From: an uncultured beta proteobacterium
GTDB taxonomy: Bacteria > Pseudomonadota > Gammaproteobacteria > Burkholderiales > Casimicrobiaceae
Length of the DNA stretch: 64,000 bases
NCBI GenBank assembly: GCA_963734575.1
Contig: CAVTHT010000007.1
Span: forward strand, 224,549-288,548
Direction of reading: 5' to 3'
Positions 11,390-46,643 of this stretch are shown piece by piece (within the stretch, counting starts at the first letter, position 1; each line of letters starts with the position of its first letter). The notes beneath the pieces are model-generated. The model saw nothing but the letters and a program-made list of their open reading frames with translations. It ran no database searches and was not told the DNA's origin. The translations under genes and the position numbers were made by a program.

Positions 11390-12385
11390 CGCCGGCCCAG
11401 TAGCCACAGGAACACCGGCACGCCGATGAGCGCCGTCACCACGCCGACCGGCAACTGGACCGGGGCCAGCACGCTGCGCGCGATGGTGTCGGCGACCACC
11501 AGCAGCGCACCGCCGGCCAGCGCGCACGCGGGGAGCAGCACGCGCTGATCGTTGCCGATCACGAGCCGCAGCGCGTGCGGCACGACGAGGCCGACGAAGC
11601 CGATGCTGCCGGCGGTCGTGACGGCAGCGGCGGTCGCGAGCGCCGCGAGCGCGTGCAGCACCGTGGTCACGCGGGCGCTCGACACACCGAGACTCGTTGC
11701 CACGTCCGCCCCGCGCATCAGCACGTTGAGGTCGCCCGCCAGCGCGAGTCCGCCGGCGATCACGATCACGAGGATCACGAATGCCGGCAAAGCGGGCCCC
11801 GCGGACGAGAGATCGCCGATCAGCCAGAAGAGCATGCCGCGCAACTGCACTTCCGGCGCGAGCGAGAGCAGCAGCGCGATGAGCGCACCCCAGCCCGATG
11901 CGATGACGATGCCGGTGAGCAGGAGGCGATTCGCGGTCCACGGCGCCTGCTGCGCGCCGCGGCGCGCGAGGCCGAACACGAGGATCGTCGACAGCACGGC
12001 CCCACCGAACGCCGCGGGGCTCGCCCACGCGGCGTACCCGCCGGCGATCGCCGTCAGCGCCGCGACCGCTGCACCACCGGAGAGGCCCAGCACGTACGGA
12101 TCGGCGAGAGGATTGCGCAGCAGCACCTGCATGAATGCGCCGGCGAGGGCGAGCAACGCGCCGGTGGCGAATGCGGCGAGTGCGCGCGGCAGACGCAGGT
12201 CGCGCACGATCGCGGACTCCATGTCGGTAGCACCGCCGAACACGCCCTCGATGATGCGGCCAGGCGGCAGGTGCACGCTTCCCACGGACGAGCGCCAGCG
12301 CCACGGCAAGCGCGGCGAGGGCGGTCAGCCCGAGCAGGAGGACAATGACGGCTGCCGGCGTGCGCAGAACGGGGCGCAGGATCAT
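11386..12385 (-). CDS. btuC: ABC transporter permease (FecCD/BtuC family); frameshift near 12280
   Basis: N-terminus MILRPVLRTPAAVIVLLLGLTALAALAVALALV (12385 frame) continues as ..VHLPPGRIIEGVFGG..RLPRALAAF..NPLADPYVLGLSGGAA..VGLVVPHALRLVIGNDQRVLLPACALAGGALLVVADTIAR in the 12309 frame. It is colinear with E. coli BtuC. Confidence 0.75.
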
Positions 12386-12447
12386 GGACGTCGTCGGGAT
12401 GAACGCACGCGGCGGGGCGGTGTCATTATAGGGGCCGCACTACGCGC

Positions 12448-13059
12448 GTGCCGCAGACCATGAGCAAGGCATTCACCAGGGAAACCGACGACGCCCTCGA
12501 GGACGACGATCTCGAGCAGGCCGCGCCGTTGCCTTCCGGGGCGCGCAACTACATGACACCCGGCACCTTCGCGCGCCTGAAGGCCGAGCTCGAGCGCCTG
12601 GTGCAGAAGGATCGTCCCGAGCTCGTCGCCACGATCGCGTGGGCCGCGTCCAACGGCGATCGTTCCGAGAACGGCGACTACATCTACGGCAAGCGGCGGT
12701 TGCGGGAGATCGACCGCCGGATCCGCTTTCTCATTCGCCGCCTCGATCTCGCCGAGGTCGTCGATCCGGTGACGCGTCGCGACGCCGACGACGAGGATCG
12801 CGTGTTCTTCGGCGCAACGGTCACCACCGCGAACGCCCGCGGCGAGGAGCGAACCGTGAGCATCGTCGGCGTCGACGAGATCGACACCACGCGCGGCTAC
12901 ATCAGCTGGGTGTCGCCGATGGCGCGCGCGCTCCTCAAGGCGCGCGAAGGCGACACCGTCGTGCTGCGCACGCCGGGTGGAACCGAGGAGCTCGATGTCC
13001 TGTCGGTGCGCTACGTGCCACTGGCAACCGGGGCGGCCGATGCTGCCGCGGATGGTTGA
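12448..13059 (+). CDS. greB: transcript cleavage factor GreB
   Basis: WAASNGDRSENGDYIYGKRRLREIDRRIRFL..YISWVSPMARALLKAREGDTVVLRTPGG aligns closely to E. coli GreB. Confidence 0.8.
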   Translation: MPQTMSKAFTRETDDALEDDDLEQAAPLPSGARNYMTPGTFARLKAELERLVQKDRPELVATIAWAASNGDRSENGDYIYGKRRLREIDRRIRFLIRRLDLAEVVDPVTRRDADDEDRVFFGATVTTANARGEERTVSIVGVDEIDTTRGYISWVSPMARALLKAREGDTVVLRTPGGTEELDVLSVRYVPLATGAADAAADG

Positions 13060-13092
13060 CGCCACGCCGAGCCAACACCTATAGTCGCCTGC

Positions 13093-13335
13093 ATGGCTTC
13101 CCTCTTTCCATCCGACGACGGCGTGCCGCAAAACGTCGCGTCGGAGCTCGAAGGTCTCGAGCGCAAGCTCGCGTCGCTGATCAGCCACGTGCGCGCGCTG
13201 CGCGCCGCGAACGAGGCGCTGCGGCGCGATCTCGCCACGGCGCAGACCCGCAACCGCGCACTCGCGGAAAGGGTGGTCGAGGCCACCGCGCGGATCGACG
13301 CGCTCCTCGCGAAGCTGCCGGAGGTCGCCGAATGA
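13093..13335 (+). CDS. zapB: small coiled-coil protein, ZapB-like cell-division factor
   Basis: 80-aa heptad-repeat protein immediately upstream of zapA, with its stop overlapping the zapA ATG. Confidence 0.5.
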   Translation: MASLFPSDDGVPQNVASELEGLERKLASLISHVRALRAANEALRRDLATAQTRNRALAERVVEATARIDALLAKLPEVAE

Positions 13336-13673
13336 ATGCGCGGGCCGCAGCGGATGCCGATCACGCGATCACGCTCGACGTCACGGTGCTCGGGCGCGAG
13401 TACAAGGTCGCGTGTCGCGAGGAGGAGCGTGCGGACCTCGCCGACGCCGTGGCGTTCCTCGACCGCCGCATGCGGGAGATCCGCGATTCCGGCCGCATCG
13501 CCGGCATCGAGCGCATCGCCGTCATGGCGGCGCTCAACATCGCCAACGACCTTCTGCGCCTGCGCCGCGAACCACCGGGCGGATCCGCAGTCTCAGGTTT
13601 GGACGAAGCCGCGATGCAGCGTAGAATCGATTCCATGAAAGACGCGATCGACCAGGTGCTCGCCGGCGCGTGA
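13332..13673 (+). CDS. zapA: cell division protein ZapA
   Basis: MNARAAADADHAITLDVTVLGREYKVACREEERADLADAVAFLDRRMREIR..IAVMAALNIANDLL shows the ZapA fold signature. A zapA-ssrS arrangement follows. Confidence 0.75.
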   Translation: MNARAAADADHAITLDVTVLGREYKVACREEERADLADAVAFLDRRMREIRDSGRIAGIERIAVMAALNIANDLLRLRREPPGGSAVSGLDEAAMQRRIDSMKDAIDQVLAGA

Positions 13674-13709
13674 TTCCATCCCGCCGCCGCAACCGATGCG
13701 GTGGCGCCC

Positions 13710-13897
13710 ATCAATGTTCCCTGCGGTGTTCGAGTCGTCCATACACTCTTTGAACCAATGCTAACTTAGCGAGGTTGCCGAGCCATTTCGAGCTGGTGTG
13801 CGCTCCCAAGCGGAAGTGCCTTAAGGCTCTGGCAGGTGACCACTCTTGAACCTCGGTTCAAGATGACGGACGGTACGGCACAGGTGGGGAACACCCT
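13710..13897 (+). ncRNA. ssrS: 6S RNA (SsrS) candidate
   Basis: A ~190-nt ORF-free region directly downstream of zapA, which is the conserved 6S locus. The 3' part CCACUCUUGAACCUCGGUUCAAGAUGACGGACGGUACGGCACAGG resembles E. coli 6S CACCUUGAACCAAGGGUUCAAGGGUUACAGCCUGCGGCGGC. The central GCCUUAAGG element is present. The 5' GUUCCC and 3' GGGGAAC ends can pair into a closing stem. Confidence 0.6.
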
Positions 13898-14051
13898 TCA
13901 GAAGCGCGCCCGCGACGGCGGGCGCGCAGTGCGGCAAGGCAGCACGGTGCGCGGCGGGCACATGCCTGGCGTGCATCATCCACGTTCAAGCGCCGTGCAG
14001 CGGCGTTGTGCGCGCGCTGCGATTCGTGGGCTCGAGAGACGATCGATCGCC

Positions 14052-14519
14052 ATGGCCTACTGGCTGATGAAGTCCGAGCCCGACGAGTTCTCCATCGACG
14101 ATCTCGCCGCGGCGCCCGGCAAGACCACCGCGTGGTTCGGCGTGCGCAACTATCAGGCGCGCAACTTCATGCGGGACGTGATGCGCGTCGGCGATCGTGC
14201 CTTCTTCTATCACTCGAGCTGCCCCGAGCCCGGCATCGCCGGGATCTGCGAGGTGAGCGCGCCGGCCTATCCGGACGCGACGCAGTTCGACCCCTCGAGT
14301 CCCTATCACGATCCGCATTCGCCGCGCGATGCGCCGCGCTGGGTCAACGTCGAGGTCCGCTTCGTCAAGAAGACGCGGCTCGTCGCTCTGTCCGAGCTGC
14401 GGGCGGAGCCGCGTCTCGCGCACATGCGCATCCTGCAGCGCGGCAACCGGCTCTCCATCACGCCCGTCGATCCTGCCGAGTGGACGGTCGTGCTGGAGCT
14501 CGCCGCGCGCAAAGTCTGA
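14052..14519 (+). CDS. EVE (PUA-like) domain protein
   Basis: MAYWLMKSEPDEFSIDDL..WFGVRNYQARNFMRDVMRVGDRAFFYHSS.. is the EVE domain signature. Confidence 0.7.
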   Translation: MAYWLMKSEPDEFSIDDLAAAPGKTTAWFGVRNYQARNFMRDVMRVGDRAFFYHSSCPEPGIAGICEVSAPAYPDATQFDPSSPYHDPHSPRDAPRWVNVEVRFVKKTRLVALSELRAEPRLAHMRILQRGNRLSITPVDPAEWTVVLELAARKV

Positions 14520-21668: not shown

Positions 21669-22946
21669 ATGAAAGCGTTGTCGGGTATCCGCATTCTAGA
21701 CATGACCCATGTGCAGGCCGGGCCCACGGCATCGCAACTCATGGCGTGGATGGGGGCGGACGTGATCAAGTTCGAGAACCCGGTCGGCGATGCCACGCGC
21801 GCGCAGCTGCGTGACGTGCCGAATGCAGACAGCCTCTATTTCACGATGCTCAACTGCAACAAGCGCTCGATCACCGTGAACATGAAGAATGCCGAAGGCA
21901 AGAAGGTCTTCGTCGAGCTCCTGAAGAAGTGCGACATCATCATGGAGAACTTCGGACCGGGCGTGCTCGACCGCTTCGGCTTCACCTGGGAAAAGATCCA
22001 CGAGATCAACCCGCGCATCATCATGGGCTCGATCAAGGGCTTCGGCTCGAACGGCCCGTACTCCGATTTCAAGGCGTACGAGAACGTCGCGCAGGCCATG
22101 GGCGGCGCAATGAGCACCACCGGCGTGCCGGAAGGCCCGCCGTTCGTGACCGGGGCGCAGATCGGCGACTCCGGCACGGGCCTGCATCTGGTCATCGGCC
22201 TCCTCGCGGCGCTGCAGCATCGGCACCAGTCGGGAGAAGGTCAGTACGTCGAAGTGGCCATGATGGACGCGGTGATGAACCTGTGCCGCGTCAAGTTCCG
22301 CGATCACCAGCGCCTGTTCCACGGCCCGCTCGCCGAGTATTCGGTGGGAACGCACCAGGGCATGGGCGCGGTGCCGCGCGCCGGCAACGATTCAGGCGGC
22401 GGCCAGCTCGGCAACGCCATCCGCTGCAAGCCGGGCGGCCCGAACGACTTCCTGTACATCGTCGTGCAGGAGGTCGTGTGGGCCGATCTGGCCAAGCGCA
22501 TCGGCCAGGAGCTCGGCCTGCCGGACCTCGTCAACGATCCGCGCTTCGCGACCATCGCCGAGCGGCGCAACCACCAGAACGACATGTGGGAGCTGATCGG
22601 CGAGCTCGCGCTCAAGTACACGAAGCGCGAGTTCATGGCGATCCTGAACGAGCTCGACGTGCCGTGCGGCCCGATCATGTCCACCGAGGACCTCTTCAGC
22701 GACGAGCACGTGCTCGGCCGGCAGATGATGGTCGAGCTCGATCATCCGCAGCGTGGCAAGTGGTACAACGTCGGCATGCCCATCAAGCTGTCGGCATCCC
22801 CCGCGGAGATCCGGCGCTCGCCCACGCTTGGCGAGCATACCGACGAGATCCTGCGCGAGGTGCTCGGCACGCCCCAGGCCGACATCGACCGCATGCGCGA
22901 CGCCGGCGCGTTCTCGAAGGACGCCCCGAAGAAGGTGGCGGCCTGA
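21669..22946 (+). CDS. frc: formyl-CoA:oxalate CoA-transferase
   Basis: MKALSGIRILDMTHVQAGPTASQLMAWMGADVIKFE..SLYFTMLNCNKRSI..aligns along its full length with Oxalobacter formigenes Frc. Intact. Confidence 0.9.
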   Translation: MKALSGIRILDMTHVQAGPTASQLMAWMGADVIKFENPVGDATRAQLRDVPNADSLYFTMLNCNKRSITVNMKNAEGKKVFVELLKKCDIIMENFGPGVLDRFGFTWEKIHEINPRIIMGSIKGFGSNGPYSDFKAYENVAQAMGGAMSTTGVPEGPPFVTGAQIGDSGTGLHLVIGLLAALQHRHQSGEGQYVEVAMMDAVMNLCRVKFRDHQRLFHGPLAEYSVGTHQGMGAVPRAGNDSGGGQLGNAIRCKPGGPNDFLYIVVQEVVWADLAKRIGQELGLPDLVNDPRFATIAERRNHQNDMWELIGELALKYTKREFMAILNELDVPCGPIMSTEDLFSDEHVLGRQMMVELDHPQRGKWYNVGMPIKLSASPAEIRRSPTLGEHTDEILREVLGTPQADIDRMRDAGAFSKDAPKKVAA

Positions 22947-27661: not shown

Positions 27662-29824
27662 ATGGCGGACGACAAGATGCATTCAGGGGGAACGATGACG
27701 CAGAACAAGACGGCAGTCCGGCAGATTCTCGACAAGGTCAAGGCGGACGGACGCACCTCGCTCACCGCGCCCGAAGGCAAGCTCGTCTGCGACGCCTACG
27801 GCATTCCCGTGCCGCGCGAAGGCGTGGCGACGTCGCGGCAGGAGGCGGCGCAGCTCGCGGCCGGCATGGGCTTCCCGGTGGTGCTCAAGATCGTGTCGCC
27901 GGAGATCCTGCACAAGACGGAAGCCGGCGGCGTGCTGGTCGGCGTCAAGTCCGCGCAGGAAGCGGAGCAGGGCTTCGACACCATCATGGCCAACGCGAAG
28001 AAGTACGACGCGAAGGCGAACCTCCTCGGCGTCCAGGTGCAGCAGATGCTGAAGGGCGGTCAGGAAGTGATCGTCGGCGCCGTCACCGACCCGTCGTTCG
28101 GCAAGCTCGTCGCGTTCGGCCTCGGCGGCGTGCTCGTCGAGGTGCTGAAGGACATCACGTTCCGTCTCGCGCCGGCGACGCGCGAGGACGCGCTGTCGAT
28201 GCTCGACGGCGTGCAGGCGGCGGAGATCCTCAAGGGCGTGCGGGGCGGCGACGCGGTGAACCGCGACGCGCTCGCGTCGCTCATCGAGAGCGTGTCGCGC
28301 CTCGTCTCCGACTTCCCCGAGATCGCCGAGATGGACCTCAACCCCGTGTTCGCCACCAAGGAGGGCGCCACGGCGGCGGACGTGCGCATCGTGGTGGACT
28401 GGAATCCCGCGCCCGCGCGGTTCCGGCCGAAGCACGAGGACATCGTGCGCGACATGAACCGCATCATGAAGCCCGATGCGGTGGCGGTGATCGGCGCGTC
28501 CAACGAGGCCGGCAAGATCGGCAACTCGGTGATGAAGAACCTGATCAACGGCGGCTACCAGGGCGAGATCTATCCCATCCATCCGTCCGCGGACGAGATC
28601 ATGGGGCGCAAGGCGTACAAGAGCGTCAAGGACGTGCCCGGCAAGATCGACGTCGCGGTGTTCGCGATCCCGGCCAAGTTCGTGGCGCAGGCCCTCACCG
28701 AGGTCGGCGAGAAGAAGATCCCCGGCGCGGTGCTCATCCCGTCGGGCTTCGCGGAAACCGGCAACGTCGAGGGGCAGAAGGAGATCCAGGAGATCGGGCG
28801 CAAGTACGGCGTGCGCTTGATGGGACCGAACATCTACGGCTTCTACTACACGTGGAAGAATCTCTGCGCGACGTTCTGCACGGCGTACGACGTCAAGGGC
28901 CACGCGGCGCTGTCGTCGCAGTCGGGCGGCATCGGCATGGCGATCATCGGCTTCTCGCGCTCGGCCAAGATGGGCGTGTCGGCGATCGTCGGACTCGGCA
29001 ACAAGTCCGACATCGACGAGGACGATCTCCTCACCTTCTTCGAGCAGGACGACAACACGCACATCATCGCGCAGCACTGCGAGGACCTGAAGGACGGGCG
29101 CGCCTTCGCGGAAGTTGCGAAGCGCGTGTCGAAAAAGAAGCCGGTCGTGGTGCTGAAGGCGGGCCGCACCAGCATGGGGGCGCGCGCCGCGAGCTCGCAC
29201 ACCGGTGCGCTCGCCGGCAACGACAAGATCTACGAGGACGTGCTCAAGCAGTCCGGCGTGATCCGCGCGCGCAGCTTGCGCGACCTGCTGGAATTCGCGC
29301 GGGCGATTCCCGTGCTGCCGACGCCGAAGGGCGAGAACGTGGTGATCATCACCGGCGCCGGCGGCTCCGGCGTGCTGCTGTCGGATGCCTGCGTCGACAA
29401 CAACCTGCAGCTCATGACGATGCCGCCGGATCTCGACACGGCGTTCAAGAAGTTCATCCCGCCGTTCGGGGCTTCCGGCAACCCGGTGGACATCACCGGC
29501 GGCGAGCCGCCGAAGACGTATCAGAACACGATCCGGCTCGGTCTCGAGGACCCGCGCATCCACGCGCTGATCCTCGGTTACTGGCACACGATCATCACCC
29601 CGCCGATGGTGTTCGCGAAACTCGTCGCCGAAGTCGTCGAGGAGTTCCGAGCCAAGGGCATCTCGAAGCCGATCGTCGCCTCGCTCGCGGGCGACGTCGA
29701 GGTCGAGGAAGCCGCGGAGTATCTGTTCGATCACGGCGTTCCGGCGTACCCCTACTCGACCGAGATGCCCGTCGCCGTGCTCGGCGCGAAGTACAAATGG
29801 GCGCGTGGCGCGGGAATAATCTGA
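27662..29824 (+). CDS. ADP(NDP)-forming acyl-CoA synthetase, fused ATP-grasp + CoA-binding/ligase-CoA domains (acetate--CoA ligase family)
   Basis: 720-aa intact ORF. N-terminal ATP-grasp (..LTAPEGKLVCDAYGIPVPREG..), CoA-binding (..AVIGASNEAGKIGNSVMKNL..) and succinyl-CoA-synthetase-like CoA-ligase domain (..VGLGNKSDIDEDD..HTGALAG..). Confidence 0.8.
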   Translation: MADDKMHSGGTMTQNKTAVRQILDKVKADGRTSLTAPEGKLVCDAYGIPVPREGVATSRQEAAQLAAGMGFPVVLKIVSPEILHKTEAGGVLVGVKSAQEAEQGFDTIMANAKKYDAKANLLGVQVQQMLKGGQEVIVGAVTDPSFGKLVAFGLGGVLVEVLKDITFRLAPATREDALSMLDGVQAAEILKGVRGGDAVNRDALASLIESVSRLVSDFPEIAEMDLNPVFATKEGATAADVRIVVDWNPAPARFRPKHEDIVRDMNRIMKPDAVAVIGASNEAGKIGNSVMKNLINGGYQGEIYPIHPSADEIMGRKAYKSVKDVPGKIDVAVFAIPAKFVAQALTEVGEKKIPGAVLIPSGFAETGNVEGQKEIQEIGRKYGVRLMGPNIYGFYYTWKNLCATFCTAYDVKGHAALSSQSGGIGMAIIGFSRSAKMGVSAIVGLGNKSDIDEDDLLTFFEQDDNTHIIAQHCEDLKDGRAFAEVAKRVSKKKPVVVLKAGRTSMGARAASSHTGALAGNDKIYEDVLKQSGVIRARSLRDLLEFARAIPVLPTPKGENVVIITGAGGSGVLLSDACVDNNLQLMTMPPDLDTAFKKFIPPFGASGNPVDITGGEPPKTYQNTIRLGLEDPRIHALILGYWHTIITPPMVFAKLVAEVVEEFRAKGISKPIVASLAGDVEVEEAAEYLFDHGVPAYPYSTEMPVAVLGAKYKWARGAGII

Positions 29825-29930: not shown

Positions 29931-31690
29931 ATGCAGGCGACCCAGGACATGACGAGCGGCGGCCAAGCCAATGCCAGCGCCGAAGCGCAGGAAACCACCG
30001 GCTTCAATCTCGTCATCGAGGCCCTGAAGCTCAACGGCATCGACACGATCTTCGGCCTCCCCGGCATTCCGATCACGGACCTCACGCGCAAGGCACAGGC
30101 CGCCGGCCTGCGCGTGATCTCGTTCCGGCACGAGCAGAACGCCGGCTATGCCGCGTCGATCGCGGGCTTCCTGACGCAGAAGCCGGGCATCTGCCTGACC
30201 GTGTCGGCGCCGGGGTTCCTCAATGGCCTGACGGCCCTCGCCAATGCCACCACCAACTGCTTTCCGATGATCCTCATCAGCGGCTCCAGCGAGCGCGAGG
30301 TCGTCGACCTGCAGCAGGGCGACTACGAGGAAATGGACCAACTCGCGATCGCCAAGCCGTTGTGCAAGGCCGCGTTCCGCGTGCTGCACGCCGAGGACAT
30401 CGGCGTCGGAATCGCGCGTGCCATCCGCGCCGCGGTGTCCGGGCGTCCGGGCGGCGTCTACCTCGATCTTCCGGCCAAGCTGTTCCCGCAGGGCGTGGAT
30501 GCGGAAGCCGGCAAGCAGTCGCTCATCAAAGTGGTCGATCCGGCACCGCGCCAGATCCCCGCGCAGGATGCCGTGCAGCGTGCGGTCGACCTGCTGAAGA
30601 GCGCCAAGCGGCCGCTCATCATTCTCGGCAAGGGCGCCGCCTACGCCCAGGCCGACGACGACATTCGTGCGCTGGTCGAGAAGACCGGCATCCCGTACCT
30701 GCCCATGTCGATGGCGAAGGGCCTGCTGCCCGACAACCACGAGCAATCCGCTGCGGCCGCGCGCTCGTACGTGCTGCCCGAGGCCGACGTGGTGATGCTG
30801 ATCGGTGCGCGCCTCAACTGGCTGCTCTCGCACGGCAAGGGCAAGACATGGGGCGGCAGAGAGCACCAAGGCGTGGGGCGGTCAGAAATTCGTGCAGATC
30901 GACATCTCGCCGCAGGAGGCCGACAGCAACGTTCGCATCGATGCGCCCGTGGTCGGCGACATCGGTTCGTGCGTCGCCGCGCTGCTCGGCACGATCGGAA
31001 ACCAGTGGCCCAAGCCGCCGTCGGACTGGCTCGACGCGATCGCCGAGCGCAAGACCAAGAACGTCGCGCAAGATGGCCGAGACGCTCGCCAGGAATCCGT
31101 CGCCGATGAATTTCCACAGCGCGCTCAACGTGGTGCGCGACATCGTCAAGGCGAATCCCGATGCCATGCTGGTCAACGAAGGCGCCAATGCGCTCGACTT
31201 CACCCGCAGCATCGTCGACATGTACAAGCCGCGGCGGCGCGTCGACGTCGGCACCTGGGGCGTGATGGGCATCGGGATGGGCTTCTCCGTGGCGGCAGCG
31301 GTGGTCACGGGCCAGCCGGTGATCGCGATCGAAGGGGACAGCGCGTTCGGCTTCTCCGGGATGGAGTGCGAGACCATCTGCCGCTACAACCTGCCGGTGT
31401 GCGTCGTCATCATGAACAACAACGGCGTCTACCGCGGGGACGAGGTCAATCCTACGGGCGGCTCCGACCCTTCACCGCTGGTGTTCGTCAAGGACGCGCG
31501 TTACGAGAAGCTGATGGAGGCCTTCGGCGGCGTCGGCGTGCATGCGACGACGCCGGCTGAATTGCGCAAGGCGATGGAAGAAGCCGTCCGCTTGCGCAGG
31601 CCGACGCTCATCAATGCGGTGATCGACGAGGCCGCCGGCACCGAAAGCGGTCGCATCACGAGCCTCAATCCGACCGCGAAGAAGAAATGA
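29931..31690 (+). CDS. oxc: oxalyl-CoA decarboxylase (ThDP-dependent); two single-base frameshifts near 30860 and 31075
   Basis: ..[72 protein letters not shown].. then ..[22 protein letters not shown].. then ..[64 protein letters not shown]. Colinear with O. formigenes Oxc across three frames. Confidence 0.9.
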
Positions 31691-31793
31691 GCCGAAGGCG
31701 TTGCACACCTGCGGTGCAGTCGTAAGCTCCCCCTCCTGGTAGACAGCGATGACTGGACTTTTCTGGCAGGATTTTGCCTGGAGGGAGGGTCCA

Positions 31794-32060
31794 ATGAAGA
31801 AGTCCCGATTCACGGAGTCGCAGATCGTCGCGATTCTCAAAGAGGGAGAAGCCGGCGTCGCCGTCGCCCAGCTCACCCGGAAGCACGGGATCAGTGCCGC
31901 TACGTACTACCACTGGAAATCGAAATACGGTGGAGCTGCCGTGTCGGAGCTAAAGCGCCTGCGCGAACTCGAGGCCGAGAACGCGAAGCTCAAGCGCATG
32001 TATGCCGACCTGGCGCTCGAGAACACTGCGATCAAGGACGTGCTCAGCCGAAAAATCTGA
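31794..32060 (+). CDS. IS3-family transposase OrfA (HTH)
   Basis: MKKSRFTESQIVAILKEGEAGVAVAQLTRKHGISAATYYHWKSKYGG..leucine zipper. Confidence 0.8.
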   Translation: MKKSRFTESQIVAILKEGEAGVAVAQLTRKHGISAATYYHWKSKYGGAAVSELKRLRELEAENAKLKRMYADLALENTAIKDVLSRKI

Positions 32061-32896
32061 CGCCGTCAGCCAAGCGCGAAGTGATCCGGATCATGACCGC
32101 GGAACACGATCTGCCGATCGTTCGCGCTTGCCAGATTGCCCGGCTATCGCGGGCGGCGTACTACAAGCCGGGCGTCGACCGAATGGCGCGCGATGCCGAG
32201 GTGATCGTGGCCTTGCAGGCGATCGTCGTCGAAGAGCAGCGCTGGGGCTTCTGGAAGTGCCATGACCGGCTGCGTGCGCAAGGCTACGGCTGGAACCACA
32301 AGCGCGTGTGGCGGGTGTACTGCCAGCTTCGGCTTAACCTGCCGCGCCGCACCAAGCGACGTGTTCCCCAACGCGAACGGCAACCGCTGATCGTCGAGCC
32401 GCGTATGAATGCAGTCTGGGCGCTCGATTTCATGCGCGACACGCTCTACAGCGGTCGGGTGTTCCGAACCCTCAACGTCATCGACGAAGCCAACCGTGGT
32501 GCGCTGGGCATCGACATCGCCGTGAGCATCCCCGCGGCGCGCGTCATCACGTTTCTGGCGCAAATGATCGATCTGCACGGCCGCCCGGCAGCCATTCGCT
32601 GTGATAACGGCCCGGAGCTCACCAGCCAGACCTTCACCGACTGGTGCAAGGAGCAGGACATCGAGCTGCGCTTCATCCAGCCCGGCAAGCCAGACCAGAA
32701 CGCCTACATCGAACGATTCAACCGGACGTATCGCGAGGAGGTCCTGAGCGCCTACCTGTTCGACTCACTCGACGAGGTGCGTGAGATCACAGCGGACTGG
32801 ATCGAGCGCTACAACGAGATCCGTCCACACGACGCGCTGGGCAGCCTGCCGCCAGCGCGCTACCGCGAGCGTTTGCTCGGCGGAACTCCAGTTTAG
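32057..32896 (+). CDS. IS3-family transposase OrfB (DDE integrase core), expressed by -1 frameshift from OrfA
   Basis: ..WALDFMRDTLYSGRVFRTLNVIDEANRGALGI..IRCDNGPELTS..QPGKPDQNAYIERFNRTYREE.. is the rve domain. The -1 frame is continuous from ..NLTPSAKREVIRIMTAEHDL. Confidence 0.85.
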   Translation: MTPSAKREVIRIMTAEHDLPIVRACQIARLSRAAYYKPGVDRMARDAEVIVALQAIVVEEQRWGFWKCHDRLRAQGYGWNHKRVWRVYCQLRLNLPRRTKRRVPQRERQPLIVEPRMNAVWALDFMRDTLYSGRVFRTLNVIDEANRGALGIDIAVSIPAARVITFLAQMIDLHGRPAAIRCDNGPELTSQTFTDWCKEQDIELRFIQPGKPDQNAYIERFNRTYREEVLSAYLFDSLDEVREITADWIERYNEIRPHDALGSLPPARYRERLLGGTPV

Positions 32897-33746
32897 AACT
32901 GTCTACTTGACGGGGGAGCTTCAACCCATTTCATTCTGGTCTTTCCTTTGCGTCAGTGCGTCGCCCGGGTCGCAAGACGATGATGTACCTAATGGCCACA
33001 CTCACCATCGAGATTGGAACTGTTTACGCATTACCATCCGCGCCGGGCGAGGACGGGGTTGTTAGTCAACTCAGGATTGTTAAATGCCTTGCCGAGCGCA
33101 TGCACGTTGTTTTTTTCCAGTTCAGTCCACGCGTGGATCCGTTCCTCGGGCAGGTAGCGCCGGCCACGAAGCCCTTCCATCCGAGCGTCCCCAAACCGTT
33201 TTGAAACCAGCACGAATTGGATATAGATCTGTGGGGTAGTATGCCTGTCACGATTCAACATTACCGCCCGCGCTTCGTGAACGTGATTGATTTGGGTCAA
33301 TGAGGTTGATAATCCGCATGGACCTTGCGTGCATCCGTCGCGACAGTAGCACTCGTATCCGGATTTCCGACGGCACCCACCTTAAGAGTGTCCGGCGGCG
33401 GCTTTTCGATGCGGGGCTCGGCGCTAGCTGCGCTGCAAATTGGGAGGCGCCGGTCCCAACCACGTGGTCGAATCGTATTCAGTATCCGAATGAAACGAAA
33501 TCTGCGCTGAGTGTGTTGTCGTCAAGGCAGCGTGCAGGCGGTAACGACATGCGGCGTGCTTGACCGGGGCGTCAGCGAGGTATTAATGTTGGCGGCAAGA
33601 ACGCTTAGCGTGATGAGACTCAAGACACCATGCCAGGCGCGACAATCAACCGCGTTTGTCAAGCCAATCATATCGCTGACGAAACAGGAAAGTAGTCCCG
33701 AAACGTGGATGACGTTTGGCACGTCCGATTCTCACTGGAGCAAAGA

Positions 33747-34286
33747 ATGCGATTAGCCCTTATCACCGCGTTGTTGGTGATCGGAACCTGCACCGGCGCT
33801 GGCTCGGCGAGCGCGCAAACCGGGCAGCTCTTTAGTTGCATTCAAGGACCCGTTGGCGTGCCTACCATCGTAATTGCGCCGCCATCGCCTGATACCAATC
33901 AAGCGATATCAATCACAGTTTCGGCAGGCGACCACAGCTCGTCCCCGAATCAGGTTGTGGGCACTTCAGTCGCGGCGACGGTGAATGGCCAATCCATCGA
34001 CGTCACGATGAACGGGGCACTATTCAGTCCTGCGCCGCCTCACCTCACCGGCATGTGCGGACTGGTCACGCTGACAGCGTTGCCCGCTGGAACGTACACG
34101 ATCAACTTCTTGTTGGCCCTTCACCTCCCGGACCCGCCGGTTCTTGCAGCTTCCAGTACGCTGGTGGTATCGAACCAAGGAACATCCAGCCCACCGAACC
34201 CCATCCCCTCGTCCAATCCAATTTCGATTGCTGTTCTCGTTGGTATTCTCCTGCTCGTTGCTAGAAGTAGCCTGCGCACGCGGTGA
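33747..34286 (+). CDS. secreted hypothetical protein with C-terminal sorting-signal-like tail, encoded in a low-GC insert
   Basis: Signal peptide MRLALITALLVIGTCTGAGSASA/QTG. Ser/Thr/Pro-rich body. C-terminus ..NPIPSSNPISIAVLVGILLLVARSSLRTR is a motif, hydrophobic helix and basic cluster, reminiscent of PEP-CTERM / IPTL-CTERM sorting domains. Gene GC is ~55% versus ~70% in the host. Confidence 0.45.
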   Translation: MRLALITALLVIGTCTGAGSASAQTGQLFSCIQGPVGVPTIVIAPPSPDTNQAISITVSAGDHSSSPNQVVGTSVAATVNGQSIDVTMNGALFSPAPPHLTGMCGLVTLTALPAGTYTINFLLALHLPDPPVLAASSTLVVSNQGTSSPPNPIPSSNPISIAVLVGILLLVARSSLRTR

Positions 34287-34296
34287 GCATGATGCA

Positions 34297-34574
34297 GAGA
34301 GCGCGCCCGCCATCTGGCGCCGCCAAGACCTGCCGGGGAGCGTCGTCATCATGAACAACAACGGCGTCTACCGCGGCGACGAGGTCAATCCTACGGGCGG
34401 CTCCGACCCTTCACCGCTGGTGTTCGTCAAGGACGCGCGTTACGAGAAGCTGATGGAGGCCTTCGGCGGCGTCGGCGTGCATGCGACGACGCCGGCTGAC
34501 TTGCGCAAGGCGATGGAAGAAGCCATCCGCTCGCGCAGGCCGACGCTCATCAATGCGGTGATCGATGAGGCGGC
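34297..34574 (+). pseudogene. 3' fragment of a second, diverged oxalyl-CoA decarboxylase copy (oxc'), truncated upstream by the low-GC insert and interrupted downstream by an IS21-family element
   Basis: ~96% nucleotide identity to oxc 31395..31650 (..[78 protein letters not shown]). It ends exactly at the IS21 left terminus TGTCAGTGGG. Confidence 0.7.
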
Positions 34575-34649
34575 TGTCAGTGGGAATCCAATAATCCCCA
34601 GCTGTAGGAATTGAATTTTCCTCACCCATCCTCGATCAGGAGATCGCAG

Positions 34650-35966
34650 ATGGAAGGGACGCAAGAAGTGGCAGTGGAGGTCGCCGGTATCGTCGCCGTG
34701 CCCGAGGTGGGCGCGGAGATGCCGGTGATCAGCAAAGAACGGTGGGAGCAATTGCGGCGACTGCACGCGCTGGGGCAGTCGATCTCGCAGATCGCCCGCA
34801 CGGCGGGTTTGGACCGCAAGACGGTGCGCGCTGGCCTGCGTAAGCTCGAATGGGTGCCATACCAGCGGGCGCCGGTGGCTGAGACGCTGCTTTCGATCCA
34901 CCACGGGTGGCTAGTCGAGCGTGCTCCGCAGGTGAATTACTCGGCGCGGATTCTGTTCCAGGAACTGCGCGCGACGCGCGGCTACCAGGGCGGCTATGAC
35001 ACCGTGCGCAATGCCGTGCGCCCGCTGCGCCGGGAAGCCGCGGCGGCGTCGCTCACCCAGTGTCGGTTCGAGACGGAGCCGGGCGAGCAAGGCCAGGTGG
35101 ATTGGGGCCAGGTGCGTGTGCAATTCGCCAACGGTCCGGCGACGGTGCATGTGTTCGTGCTGACGCTTGGCTACTCGCGTCGAGCGTGGGCGGAGGGCTA
35201 CGAGAACGAGCGCATGGGTTCACTTCTGGCAGCGCACGAACACGCCTTCTCGCATTTCGGTGGTCGTCCCGCGGAGCTGCTCTACGACCGGATGCGCACC
35301 GTGACCATGAAGCCCGCCGCGGAGAAGGCGAAGTGGAATCCGACCTTCGAGAGCTTCTTCCGCCACTGGGGCTTCGAGCCGAGCGCTGTGCCGGCCGTAC
35401 CGGGCCCAGACCAAGGGCAAGGTCGAGTCGGGCGTGAAGTATGTCAAGCGCAACTTCATCCCGGCCGGGTGTTCGTCGATCTCGCCGACTTCAACGACCA
35501 ACTGGCGACCTGGCTCGGCGAGGTCGCCGACGTGCGCGTGCACGGCACCACGCATGAGCGGCCGATCGACCGCTTTGCGCGCGAAGCCGGCGCCCTGGTG
35601 CGCACCATCGACCAGCCAGCGTTCTTCCGGCGCTACAGCGGGAGCGGTGGTGGCCGACGACTGGCTGGTCAGCCATCGACGCCAACCGCTACTCGGTACC
35701 GTGGCGGCTCATTGGCAAGACGGTCGAGCGTGGTGCGGGTGGGCTCGAGCTGGCAGATCTCCCACGGCGGCGCGGTCGGTGGCCGAGCATCCGGTGCTCA
35801 CCGGTCGCGCATCAGGTGCTGGTCGATCCTGCCCACGGCCCCGGTGCAGTGGCGCGCAACGCTCGCACCCGCTTCAGTGCACCGCTCACCGGTTCATGCG
35901 GCCAACGACGTGCAGCGCAGTCGAAGTGCGCGACCTCGACGTCTATGAACAGCTGCTGGAGGTCGC

Positions 35967-35970
<4 letters not shown>
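34650..35970 (+). CDS. IS21 transposase IstA, at least 3-4 frameshifts
   Basis: HTH ..ISQIARTAGLDRKTVRAGL.. and DDE region ..GEQGQVDWGQVRVQFANGPATVHVFVLTLGYSRRAWAEGYENERMGSLLAAHEHAF.., then ..KGKVESGVKYVKRNFIP.., ..VHGTTHERPIDRF.. and ..VEVRDLDVYEQLLEVA are spread over three frames. Confidence 0.75.
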
Positions 35971-36749
<779 letters not shown>

Positions 36750-36808
36750 ACCGGGGTGAGGAGATTTCGATTCCTATGTCTGGGGAAATCTGGATTCCTG
36801 TTGACACG

Positions 36809-36867
36809 CGGCCGGCACCGAAAGCGGTCGCATCACGAGCCTCAATCCGAGCGCGAAGAAGAAGTAG
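36809..36867 (+). pseudogene. last ~19 codons of oxc' (..[18 protein letters not shown]) displaced by the IS21 insertion
   Basis: CGGCCGGCACCGAAAGCGGTCGCATCACGAGCCTCAATCCGAGCGCGAAGAAGAAGTAG matches the oxc 3' end with 3 substitutions. It continues the fragment that stops at 34574. Confidence 0.7.
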
Positions 36868-36905
36868 CTACGGCGGGCGGACGATCGCCCTTCGCGCTGT
36901 CGTGG

Positions 36906-37079
36906 GTCAGGCTTCAGCCTGACATGGGGCCGGCCGATGTCAGGCTGAAGCCTGACCCACAGCGCAATCCTCCGTTCGTGGTCAGGCTGAAGCCTGACTA
37001 CAGCGCTTGGCCGTTCGGCGTCAGGCTGAAGCCTGACCTACAGCGCATTCGGCCGTTCGTCGTCAGGCCGAAGCCCGAC
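36906..37079. repeat. tandem array of about four 41-bp units, each carrying the 17-bp palindrome TCAGGCTGAAGCCTGAC (5 hairpins, last degenerate); REP/BIME-like
   Basis: Hairpins at 36906-36923, 36940-36956, 36982-36998, 37021-37037 and 37063-37079. Inter-hairpin segments are mutually similar (YACAGCGCnnnnnnCCGTTCGnnG), so this is a tandem repeat, not CRISPR. The last unit overlaps the 3' end of the convergent qor gene. Confidence 0.8.
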
Positions 37080-38098
37080 CCACAGCCGGCTTCACCTCGA
37101 GCATGATCTTGCCGATGTGCTCGGACGATTCCATCAGCGCGTGTGCGGCCGCAGCCTCTTCAAGCGGGTAGACGCGGAAGATGACGGGCTTGAGGCGACC
37201 GGACGGAAAGAGCGGCCAGACGTGCTCGCGCAACGCCGCGGCGATCGCGACCTTCCGCGCAGCGGGGCTCGCGCGCAGCGTCGAGCCGGTCACCGTCAGG
37301 CGCTTCATCATGATGAAACGCCAGTCTGCCTCGACCTTGCTTCCCTGCAGGAAGGCGATGATGACGAGCCGGCCTTCGAGCGCGAGGCACTTGAGGTTCT
37401 TCTCGATGTAGTCGCCGCCGACCATGTCGAGGATGACGTTGACTCCCGCCTTGTCGGTGAGACGCGCCATCTCCTTCGCGAAGTCGCTCTGCCGGTAGTT
37501 GATGACATGGTCCGCGCCCATGCTGCGGCAGAACGCGGCCTTGTCGTCCTTGCCGACGGTCGTGTACACCGTCGCGCCCCACGCCTTCGCGAGCTGGATC
37601 GCGGTGAGACCGATGCCGCTCGAGCCGCCGTGGATCAGGATGCTCTCGCCGGGGGCGAGGCGTCCGCGCTCGAACACGTTGTGCCAGACGGTGAAGTAGT
37701 TCTCCGGCAGGCTCGCGGCTTCGAGCATCGAGAGCCCGTCGGGCAGCGGCAGGCAGAAGCCGGCCGGCGTCGTGCAGTACTCGGCATAGCCGCCGCCGGG
37801 AACGAGCGCGCACACCGCATCGCCGACGCGCCATTGCGTCACGTCGTCGCCGAGCGCGGCGATCGGTGCCTGCGACCTCGAGTCCGATCACGGGTGACGC
37901 GTCCGGCGGCGGCGGATAACCGCCGGCGCGCTGGATGCAATCCGGCCGATTCACGCCCGCATAGCGCACGGCGATCAGCACCTCTCCGGCGCGCGGCCGC
38001 GGCACCGGCATCTCCGCGAGCGCCAGCACGTCCGGTGGACCGGACTCGCGCGCGGCGATATAGCGCATCGTGGTCGGCAGTTCCTGCATCGCATTCAT
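37063..38098 (-). CDS. qor: NADPH:quinone oxidoreductase / zeta-crystallin-like Zn-independent MDR family; frameshift near 37860
   Basis: N-terminus MRYIAARESGPPDVLALAEMPVPRPRAGEVLIAVRYAGVNRPDCIQRAGGYPPPPDASPVIGLE (38098 frame). The remainder ..TQWRVGDAVCALVPGGGYAEYCTTPAG..GESILIHGGSSGIGLTAIQLAKAWGATVYTT.. is in the 37842 frame. Confidence 0.8.
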
Positions 38099-45497: not shown

Positions 45498-46643
45498 CGG
45501 ACTCGCGCCGCTGCCCACAGTCGCGCGACCTGCTCCGCACGGTCCGCAAGCAGGGCGTCGGCGCGCGCGAGCGCTGTGTCGAGCGTCATGGGTGCATCCG
45601 GCAACGCAAAGCAGCCGGCAAAGACGGTGGACAGCGCGGGCAGGGCCTCGAGCGTCGACCGCGCCGGCGATCAGCGTCGCCGGCACGTGCGCACGGCGCG
45701 CCCGCGACGCGGCAATCCACGGCGCCTTGCCGGCCGAGCGTCTGCTCATCGGTGCGTCCTTCACCGGTGATCAGCCAGTCGGCCCCCGCCAGGGCACCAT
45801 CGAGGTCGATCAGATCGGCGACCACTTCCGCGCCGGGCCGCAGCGCTGGCGCCGAGCAGCAGCAGCGCGAAGCCGAGTCCGCCCGCGGCTCCCGCACCCG
45901 GCAACGCTGCGACGGATTTTCCGAAGGCCTGCTCCGCGCACGCGCCGAAATGGGCGAGCGTGGCATCGATGCTCTTCACCTCCTCCGCGCCGACGCCCTT
46001 TTGCGGGCCGAACACCGCCGTCGCGCCGCGCGGACCGGTCAGCGGATTGTCGACATCCGACAGCACCGTGATCGAGCACTCGCGGATGCGTGGATCGATC
46101 GTTGACGCATCCACGCGCGCCAGTCGCGTCAACCCCTGCGGGGTCGGCTCGACGGCAGCGCCATGTTCGTCGAGGAGCTGCGCGCCGAGCGCAGCGAGGA
46201 GCCCGGCGCCGCCATCGTTCGTGCTGCTGCCGCCCAGGCCCACCATGAAACGGCGGATGCCGCGGTCCATGAGCGCGCGCATGATCTCGCCCATGCCGCG
46301 CGTGCTGCGTGCATGGACGGGAGCATGCATGCCGTCGCGATCGGTGATGCCGACGACGCTGGCCGCCTCGATGACGCCCAGCTCGCCCTGCCCATCGCGC
46401 AGCACGCCATAGGGCAGCGGGCGACGCTCTGCCTTCCGCACCCGATGCGGCGTGCGTGCAGCGCTCGCCGCCACTCCCCGCCAGAAGCGCGTCGAGCGTG
46501 CCGTCGCCGCCGTCCGCCATCGGCCGGGAACGCACCTCGGCATCCGGCCACACGCGCAGGAGGCCGCGCGCGATCGCTGCGCAAACCTCTTGTGCGGTGA
46601 GCGAGCCCTTGAACTTGTCGGGAGCGAGAACGATGACCGTCAT
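45490..46643 (-). CDS. glxK: glycerate kinase (GlxK/GarK family); at least 3 frameshifts
   Basis: MTVIVLAPDKFKGSLTAQEVCAAIARGL..ADGGDGTLDALL.. (46643 frame). ..GMGEIMRALMDRGIRRFMVGLGGSSTNDGGAGLLAALGA..FGPQKGVGAEEVKSIDATLAHF..GAGAAGGLGFALLLLGA.. (46543 frame). ..PGAEVVADLIDLDGALAGADWLITGEGRTDEQTL.. (45966 frame). ..AGKAPWIAAS.. (45764 frame). Confidence 0.65.

Follow-up and report, generated by a model that had tools for sequence, protein, structure and literature searches.

A gene cluster for oxalate and formate metabolism lies on contig CAVTHT010000007.1 of an uncultured betaproteobacterium (Burkholderiales, Casimicrobiaceae; GenBank assembly GCA_963734575.1). We analysed 64,000 nt of this contig (positions 224,549 to 288,548 of the forward strand; this whole stretch is called the window, and coordinates count from its first letter) and focused on the space between oxc, the oxalyl-CoA decarboxylase gene, and qor, a quinone oxidoreductase gene. 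This space is occupied by a mosaic of two insertion sequences (ISs) of different families, a segment of lower GC content, and a second, incomplete oxc copy that is split by one of the ISs. It is reasonable to propose, with a probability of roughly 0.7, that the region is an ordinary junkyard of IS insertion and recombination between two convergent genes. Its features are the following (+ or - gives the strand):

29931-31690, +, oxc1, oxalyl-CoA decarboxylase gene, full length, in three frames as assembled
31691-31720, 30-bp spacer from the oxc1 stop codon to the left end of the IS3-family element
about 31721-32923, +, IS3-family insertion sequence, ~1.2 kb, open reading frames (ORFs) intact
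31794-32060, +, orfA of the IS3-family element (HTH_Tnp_1, Pfam)
32081-32896, +, orfB of the IS3-family element (rve, rve_3, HTH_21), in the -1 frame relative to orfA
32924-34309, low-GC segment, 1.39 kb
33747-34286, +, gene for a 179-amino-acid (aa) secreted protein, the cargo of the low-GC segment
34310-34574, +, oxc2 relic part A, corresponding to oxc1 codons about 473-560, truncated on the 5' side
34570-34574, GCGGC, left copy of the IS21 target-site duplication
34575-36806, +, IS21-family insertion sequence, 2232 bp, ends TGTCAG...TTGACA
34650-35948, +, istA, frame lost in three internal stretches and at the C-terminal end
35971-36749, +, istB, split into two frames
36808-36812, GCGGC, right copy of the IS21 target-site duplication, with one extra C before it at 36807
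36813-36867, +, oxc2 relic part B, last 17 codons and TAG stop (36865-36867)
36902-37079, array of five 18-nt palindromes GTCAGGCTGAAGCCTGAC resembling repetitive extragenic palindromic (REP) sequences, the first in opposite orientation
37063-37887, -, qor, NAD(P)H quinone oxidoreductase gene of the PIG3 family (NCBIfam TIGR02824, 369 bits)

An earlier reading of the letters (the sequence-only reading) had recognised the main pieces and had proposed that the oxalate island is itself mobile. For comparison we used the 80 best-matching related loci for the window oxc, one genome per species, all from Burkholderiales or other betaproteobacteria and mostly metagenome-assembled genomes (MAGs), the source genome itself not being one of them.

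The two oxc copies

The second oxc copy becomes apparent from direct repeats that are far beyond chance: positions 31380-31640 recur at 34319-34579 with 95% identity, and 31631-31686 recur at 36808-36863 with 96%, in agreement with the second partial copy of about 96% identity in the sequence-only reading. Altogether, the oxc2 fragment comprises 320 nt (34310-34574 plus 36808-36867) that are 96-97% identical to oxc1; within the final 100 codons, 12 of 300 nt differ between oxc1 and the fragment. With about 106 of 579 codons present, and these split by the IS21-family element, the fragment is not a complete coding sequence. Its homology to oxc1 begins at 34310, the first ~30 nt being degraded (five substitutions and one 3-nt indel), and upstream of this point no oxc homology was found. 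At the 34310 junction neither an IS end nor a duplication nor a recognisable recombination site is seen, and nothing there marks the low-GC insert as the agent that truncated oxc2, as had been assumed.

The relic had also been regarded as the diverged copy. The alignments do not single it out, since oxc1 and the relic are each 90.5% identical to the closest orthologue, that of the related locus L001. Polarisation with L001 and a second relative, L002, assigned the derived state to oxc1 at seven of 11 sites (a 7:4 split that is not significant), including a Ser-to-Leu exchange where 25 of 26 orthologues have Ser. Starting at 31438, the relic agrees with L001 at seven of nine polarisable sites, and the two sites at its 5' edge favour oxc1. 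The last 47 nt of the relic, together with the TAG stop, are identical to L001; the oxc1 tail, which ends in ...ACC GCG AAG AAG AAA TGA, differs from L001 at four sites and resembles the L002 allele. By these comparisons the relic seems no less ancestral than the oxc1 tail.

Beyond the two stop codons (TGA in oxc1, TAG in the relic) the sequences are unrelated, and the 30-bp spacer behind oxc1 has no match elsewhere in the window or in the fetched related loci. An origin of the relic by simple tandem duplication was therefore rejected: the spacer matches nothing upstream or in relatives, and related sequence does not follow the two stops.

The IS21-family element

IS21-family elements encode the transposase IstA followed by the helper IstB, have TG...CA termini and generate target duplications of 4-8 bp. 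The element in the relic resembles them in its length (2.2 kb), in the order of istA (HTH and rve domains) and istB (AAA+ helper), in its termini (TGT...ACA) and in its 5-bp target duplication, which lies within the family range. It scores 223 bits on NCBIfam transpos_IS21 (cutoff 160), and the two IstB fragments score 121 bits each, covering profile positions 3-119 and 152-232. Its ends were set by DNA alignment to four intact relatives, all TGTCAG...TTGACA, which moved the right end from the earlier 36808 to 36806. The closest IstA proteins, which are metagenomic, are 72-75% identical, and the intact relatives share the ends of the window element.

The element is flanked by GAGGCGGC on the left and C GCGGC CGGC on the right, i.e. 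by a 5-bp duplication plus one extra C. Deleting the element together with one GCGGC copy gives a junction that reads GAT GAG GCG GCC GGC ACC (D-E-A-A-G-T), in the same frame as oxc1. The sequence-only reading was thus right that IS21 splits oxc2 cleanly. It went further in placing this insertion before the 5' truncation; all that the duplication shows is that the target was uninterrupted locally at the time of the IS21 insertion.

Unlike the family pattern, both genes are broken by indels, and an extra base separates the right end from the duplication. We counted 13 single-nt indels (10 insertions and three deletions), all within 35384-36458, which justifies the label degenerate that had been given to the element. 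Conserved genes of the window carry far fewer, about 8 indels over ~35 kb against 13 in 2.2 kb. As assembled, the IS21 copy is dead.

The IS3-family element

Elements of the IS3 family usually have TG termini, duplicate 3-5 bp of their target and carry orfA and orfB, which give rise to an OrfAB fusion. The element next to oxc1 shares with them the size of ~1.2 kb, orfA (HTH) and orfB (DDE, rve) in 0/-1 frames, and a slippery A-run between the two, here A5 at 32051-32055 (GAAAAAT at 32050-32056). The D,D(35)E spacing is readable in OrfB, and the terminal inverted repeats are imperfect and 23-26 nt long, the arms at 31724-31746 and 32899-32921 being 83% complementary. OrfB reaches 219 bits on NCBIfam transpos_IS3 (cutoff 160), and its nearest annotated IS3-family relatives are from Ralstonia solanacearum (64% aa identity) and Eleftheria terrae (55%). 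The Pfam and NCBIfam models thus support the presence of two unrelated ISs, as the sequence-only reading had it.

The ends of the IS3-family element were set by aligning six other copies (L083 with 98% identity, L085-L089 with 81%). These have the canonical ends CGTAAGCTCCCCC...GGGGGAGC(T/A)TACG, and the sequences diverge immediately outside. The window copy has the canonical left end, at 31721, which leaves 30 bp to the oxc1 stop codon; the coordinates 31712-32934, with a start 25 bp after the stop, had to be replaced by 31721-32923. The right tip reads ...GAGCTTCA (then ACCC) instead of the canonical ...GAGCTTACG; its last three bases are non-canonical, and it departs from the ...TTACG common to five other copies. 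Boundaries at 31710-32923, which would give a 3-bp 'ACC' repeat, had been derived from distant relatives and were rejected, as the closer copies place the left end at 31721.

Two further traits set the window copy apart from the usual IS3 pattern. Its termini begin with CG rather than TG, and it lacks a target duplication: no 3-5-bp repeat was found at any plausible boundary, the flanks being ...GCAGT and (A)ACCCA.... Target-site duplications, which had been proposed as a check, are accordingly present for IS21 and absent for IS3. The missing duplication bears on the history of this IS3 copy, not on its family membership. Since there is no duplication and the right tip is damaged, the flanks were probably joined by a rearrangement and not by simple insertion.

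The element is 98% identical, without gaps, to the copies in L083 and L084. Its OrfB sits in a cluster of 327 metagenomic proteins at 90% identity, which indicates a widespread, active IS, and the window copy may itself still be active. As IS3 is intact and 98% identical to another copy, while IS21 is heavily decayed, there are hints that IS3 is the youngest piece of the mosaic. Further copies, ends or proteins of IS3 or IS21 were found neither in the 64-kb window nor in the 80 oxc loci.

Two observations concern copies elsewhere. At L083 2927-5618 (ENA ERZ25039554 contig_21949), the 98%-identical IS3 copy is interrupted by an IS110-family element (DEDD_Tnp_IS110/Transposase_20) and adjoins a further rve fragment, a nested-IS hotspot. 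The 11 nt outside the left end in the window (31710-31720, TGCGGTGCAGT) match those in L082, an Eleftheria terrae plasmid (TGCGGAGCATT), at nine of 11 positions; in L083 this stretch is not conserved, and the resemblance may reflect chance or target preference.

The low-GC segment

Between IS3 and the relic, the GC content drops to 55-58% in 300-nt windows, compared with 63-75% outside the segment. A low-GC segment had been noted before, with figures of 52-55% and about 70%. The segment is presumably foreign DNA. Its ORFs match no Pfam or NCBIfam family and include no recognisable mobile-element gene, its DNA has no match in related loci or plasmids, and a plasmid search with the DNA of the whole mosaic returned trivial matches or none. 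We also considered that the segment could be diverged oxc or a known mobile gene, and rejected both for want of nucleotide or translated similarity. Apart from the gene for the 179-aa protein, about 0.8 kb of the segment has no assignable content.

The qor side of the mosaic

The REP-like array behind the relic spans ~180 bp, and its last palindrome overlaps the stop codon of qor. Owing to this overlap, the qor product is seven residues longer (...EVKPAVGRASA) than its L001 counterpart (...DVSP). With its short GC-rich imperfect palindrome in five copies, one of them inverted, in an intergenic position between convergent genes, the array resembles REP or bacterial interspersed mosaic element (BIME) arrays. 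Unlike these, the palindrome is known here as a single cluster within 64 kb; no other cluster was found in the window and none in 96 fetched loci. Rfam gave only sub-threshold hairpin matches on the array.

qor is convergent with oxc, and with it synteny with L001 resumes beyond the mosaic. This closest relative is collinear with the window over 20.3-31.7 kb and again from 37.1 kb onward. In L001, the space between oxc and qor (11735-14395) holds PAP2-like, diacylglycerol-kinase-like and metallophosphoesterase genes and no mosaic. As three other genes lie between oxc and qor there, this space is variable within the lineage.

Origin of the mosaic

Both IS elements are new members of known families, and mosaics of this type are familiar from many genomes. 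In the junkyard reading, four independent, standard kinds of event are superimposed in the oxc-qor space; with the two genes converging on it, insertions there would cost little. The final ~106 codons of oxc are present a second time, 3-4% diverged, with the downstream REP array and qor kept by the relic only. IS21 transposed into this second copy by normal cut-and-paste or copy-in, made its 5-bp duplication and then decayed. The 1.4-kb AT-richer foreign segment joins the truncated 5' edge of the relic through an illegitimate junction. For IS3, in turn, recombination between two copies of the element or a deletion next to it probably placed its present flanks side by side. Duplications at the oxc locus do occur, as is evident from an independent case: the related MAG L007 (10047-17560) carries a 3.76-kb tandem duplication of oxc-frc-acs', reaching into the first 0.7 kb of acs, with copies that are 97.8% identical (77 mismatches, five gaps). 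This is the only such duplication at the oxalate locus among the 80 loci. No functioning system is found in the mosaic, and both the relic and IS21 are dead.

Some points weigh against this explanation. The unrelated sequence directly after the two oxc stop codons is unlike what a simple tandem duplication predicts. Given the background of +1 insertions in the contig (see below), errors could account for some of the IS21 decay, for the extra C and for the unusual IS3 tip. Moreover, the junctions are known from the assembly only, and IS copies were counted within the 64-kb window only.

Direct repeats of a gene fragment that bracket foreign DNA are seen in relics of IS-associated rearrangement, and also in those of homology-facilitated or Campbell-type integration. 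The latter likeness suggests a different origin, which we consider unlikely: foreign DNA could have been integrated within the resident oxc by way of a homologous anchor, either through a Campbell-type single crossover with a circular molecule or through homology-facilitated illegitimate recombination. The donor would have had the order oxc 3' part, 30 bp, IS3, low-GC DNA, so that everything from the oxc1 3' end through the spacer and IS3 to the low-GC DNA would be imported. The relic would then be the resident's original oxc 3' end, still on its native downstream DNA, and not a decayed paralogue. The layout of repeat, insert and repeat fits this proposal, as the insert is bounded by direct oxc repeats, and the homology ends exactly at the differing TGA and TAG stops with unrelated DNA beyond. 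The distribution of alleles fits as well, with the L001-like final stretch and stop of the relic, its agreement with L001 from 31438 onward, and the L002-like oxc1 tail with its four differences. As far as the mechanism is concerned, integration of the anchor type is documented in PMC3240628, and with one homologous and one illegitimate junction the mosaic resembles the relics expected from it. However, only about 11 sites are informative and several of them are polymorphic among the outgroups, IS3 would lack a duplication even inside the supposed donor segment, and neither plasmids nor related loci yielded a donor sequence. Furthermore, classical homology-facilitated illegitimate recombination usually deletes recipient DNA rather than duplicating it, and in contrast to described cases the mosaic is read from a single genome, with no donor or intermediate found. 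If true, the anchored import would have left a natural footprint at oxc in an uncultured soil betaproteobacterium.

Slightly less probable still is an assembly artefact, in which two strains about 4% apart were chained, or a mis-join occurred at the IS or oxc repeats. In one strain, IS3 and the low-GC DNA would follow oxc; in the other, oxc would be interrupted by IS21, with the REP array and qor behind it. The frequent +1 insertion errors in the contig would agree with this, and a divergence of 3-4% is typical for co-assembled strains or sister species. Yet a mis-join guided by repeats offers no explanation for the junction between the low-GC segment and oxc2, since the position at 34310 is not a homologous one. 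The repeats, at 320 nt and 4% divergence, are also neither long nor similar enough to collapse or to mislead a long-read assembler; the repeat-induced collapse that the sequence-only reading had offered as an alternative is unlikely for the same reason, the two oxc copies having different flanks besides. The IS21 duplication and the exact restoration of the frame show, in addition, that the two halves of the relic belong together. As to the proposal that the oxalate cluster is itself a mobile or IS-bounded island, mobile elements do abut oxc, and one relative has a tandem duplication at the locus. The idea is nevertheless very improbable, because the GC content of the cluster is native, L001 is collinear across and beyond the mosaic, the genes are conserved in related MAGs, and neither a tRNA, an integrase nor a second copy or end of IS3 or IS21 occurs in the 64 kb.

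Taken as a junkyard between convergent genes, the region brings two unnamed ISs, of the IS3 and IS21 families, and one pseudogene relic into the annotation of this uncultured Burkholderiales genome and marks the oxc-qor space as a variable spot in the lineage. Beyond annotation it is of little importance.

Single-base insertions in the contig

The practical lesson of the region is the indel noise of the contig. As assembled, oxc1 is interrupted twice, by +1-nt insertions at 30859 and 31069; the frame switches near 30870 and 31060 are backed by 62-67 related loci. With its frames corrected, oxc1 reaches 1006 bits on NF006721 and 989 on TIGR03254, both NCBIfam equivalogs, and its product is a full-length thiamine diphosphate enzyme with frc nearby, as expected of an oxalyl-CoA decarboxylase. 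The best match among the 80 related loci has 90% amino-acid identity.

Other frameshifts in conserved genes were mapped to 25386, 26253, 38936, 45736 and 45846, all of them +1 and, like the two in oxc1, at non-homopolymer sites. Counting those in oxc1, eight reference loci each support the mapping at five sites, and only two do so at 45736 and 45846. The genes hit by +1 insertions encode the formate dehydrogenase alpha subunit, oxalyl-CoA decarboxylase and the products of genes at 38.4-39.3 kb and 45.7-46.6 kb. Conserved genes are interrupted at about 6750 and about 46440 as well. The background amounts to roughly 8 indels per ~35 kb of conserved genes. Since the +1 pattern is uniform across unrelated housekeeping genes, these insertions are probably errors of the assembly consensus rather than mutations. 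The sequence-only reading had spoken of a functional oxc; with two frameshifts that are likely assembly errors, the function of oxc1 is neither asserted nor denied here. With insertions in oxc1, istA, istB and neighbouring genes, pseudogene calls from the unpolished contig, or the inference that oxalate degradation has been lost, would be untrustworthy.

In-frame stop codons were considered as proof of real pseudogenes and rejected, as the hits are antisense shadow ORFs and uninformative. Several ORFs of L001 are likewise split, which suggests similar indel noise in that MAG.

The oxalate cluster

Upstream of the mosaic lies the oxalate/formate cluster, tctCBA-frc-fdh-acs-oxc; its genes follow in this order, with oxc1 next to acs:

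first in the cluster, tctC and tctA, transporter genes
21675-22943, frc, formyl-CoA transferase equivalog (TIGR03253, 565 bits)
between frc and acs, genes for the subunits of NAD-dependent formate dehydrogenase
27662-29824, acs, ADP-forming acyl-CoA synthetase gene

The GC content is native throughout the cluster (16-31.7 kb). Its genes recur in dozens of related Burkholderiales MAGs; the gene order of the window is found in L001 only. A tRNA scan of the 64-kb window was negative, and the window contains no integrase. In composition, integrase, a flanking IS pair and tRNA, the cluster thus shows no hallmark of a genomic island, and the native GC and the L001 synteny do not support the claim of a mobile oxalate island. 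Nor do the ISs form a composite transposon: one belongs to the IS3 and the other to the IS21 family, and the window contains a single copy of each. Searches with Rfam and scans for tRNAs, promoters and terminators were without relevant result.

The secreted protein of the low-GC segment

Although incidental to the mosaic, the gene at 33747-34286 deserves mention. A word-indexed search found no match for the 179-aa protein, whereas an exhaustive HMMER scan retrieved 25 homologues among 1.84 billion representatives, the best of them with 61% identity and equal length. By this alignment, 33747-34286 is a real gene of a genuine, uncharacterised small family. The members share a signal peptide, two conserved Cys, a P-[IV]-P-[TAS] motif (P-I-P-S in the window protein), a hydrophobic helix and an Arg-rich tail. 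The C-terminal motif, helix and tail together resemble sorting signals of the IPTL- or PEP-CTERM exosortase type, and no NCBIfam or Pfam model reported them; the family has no curated model. The best homologue lies in an unrelated gene context.

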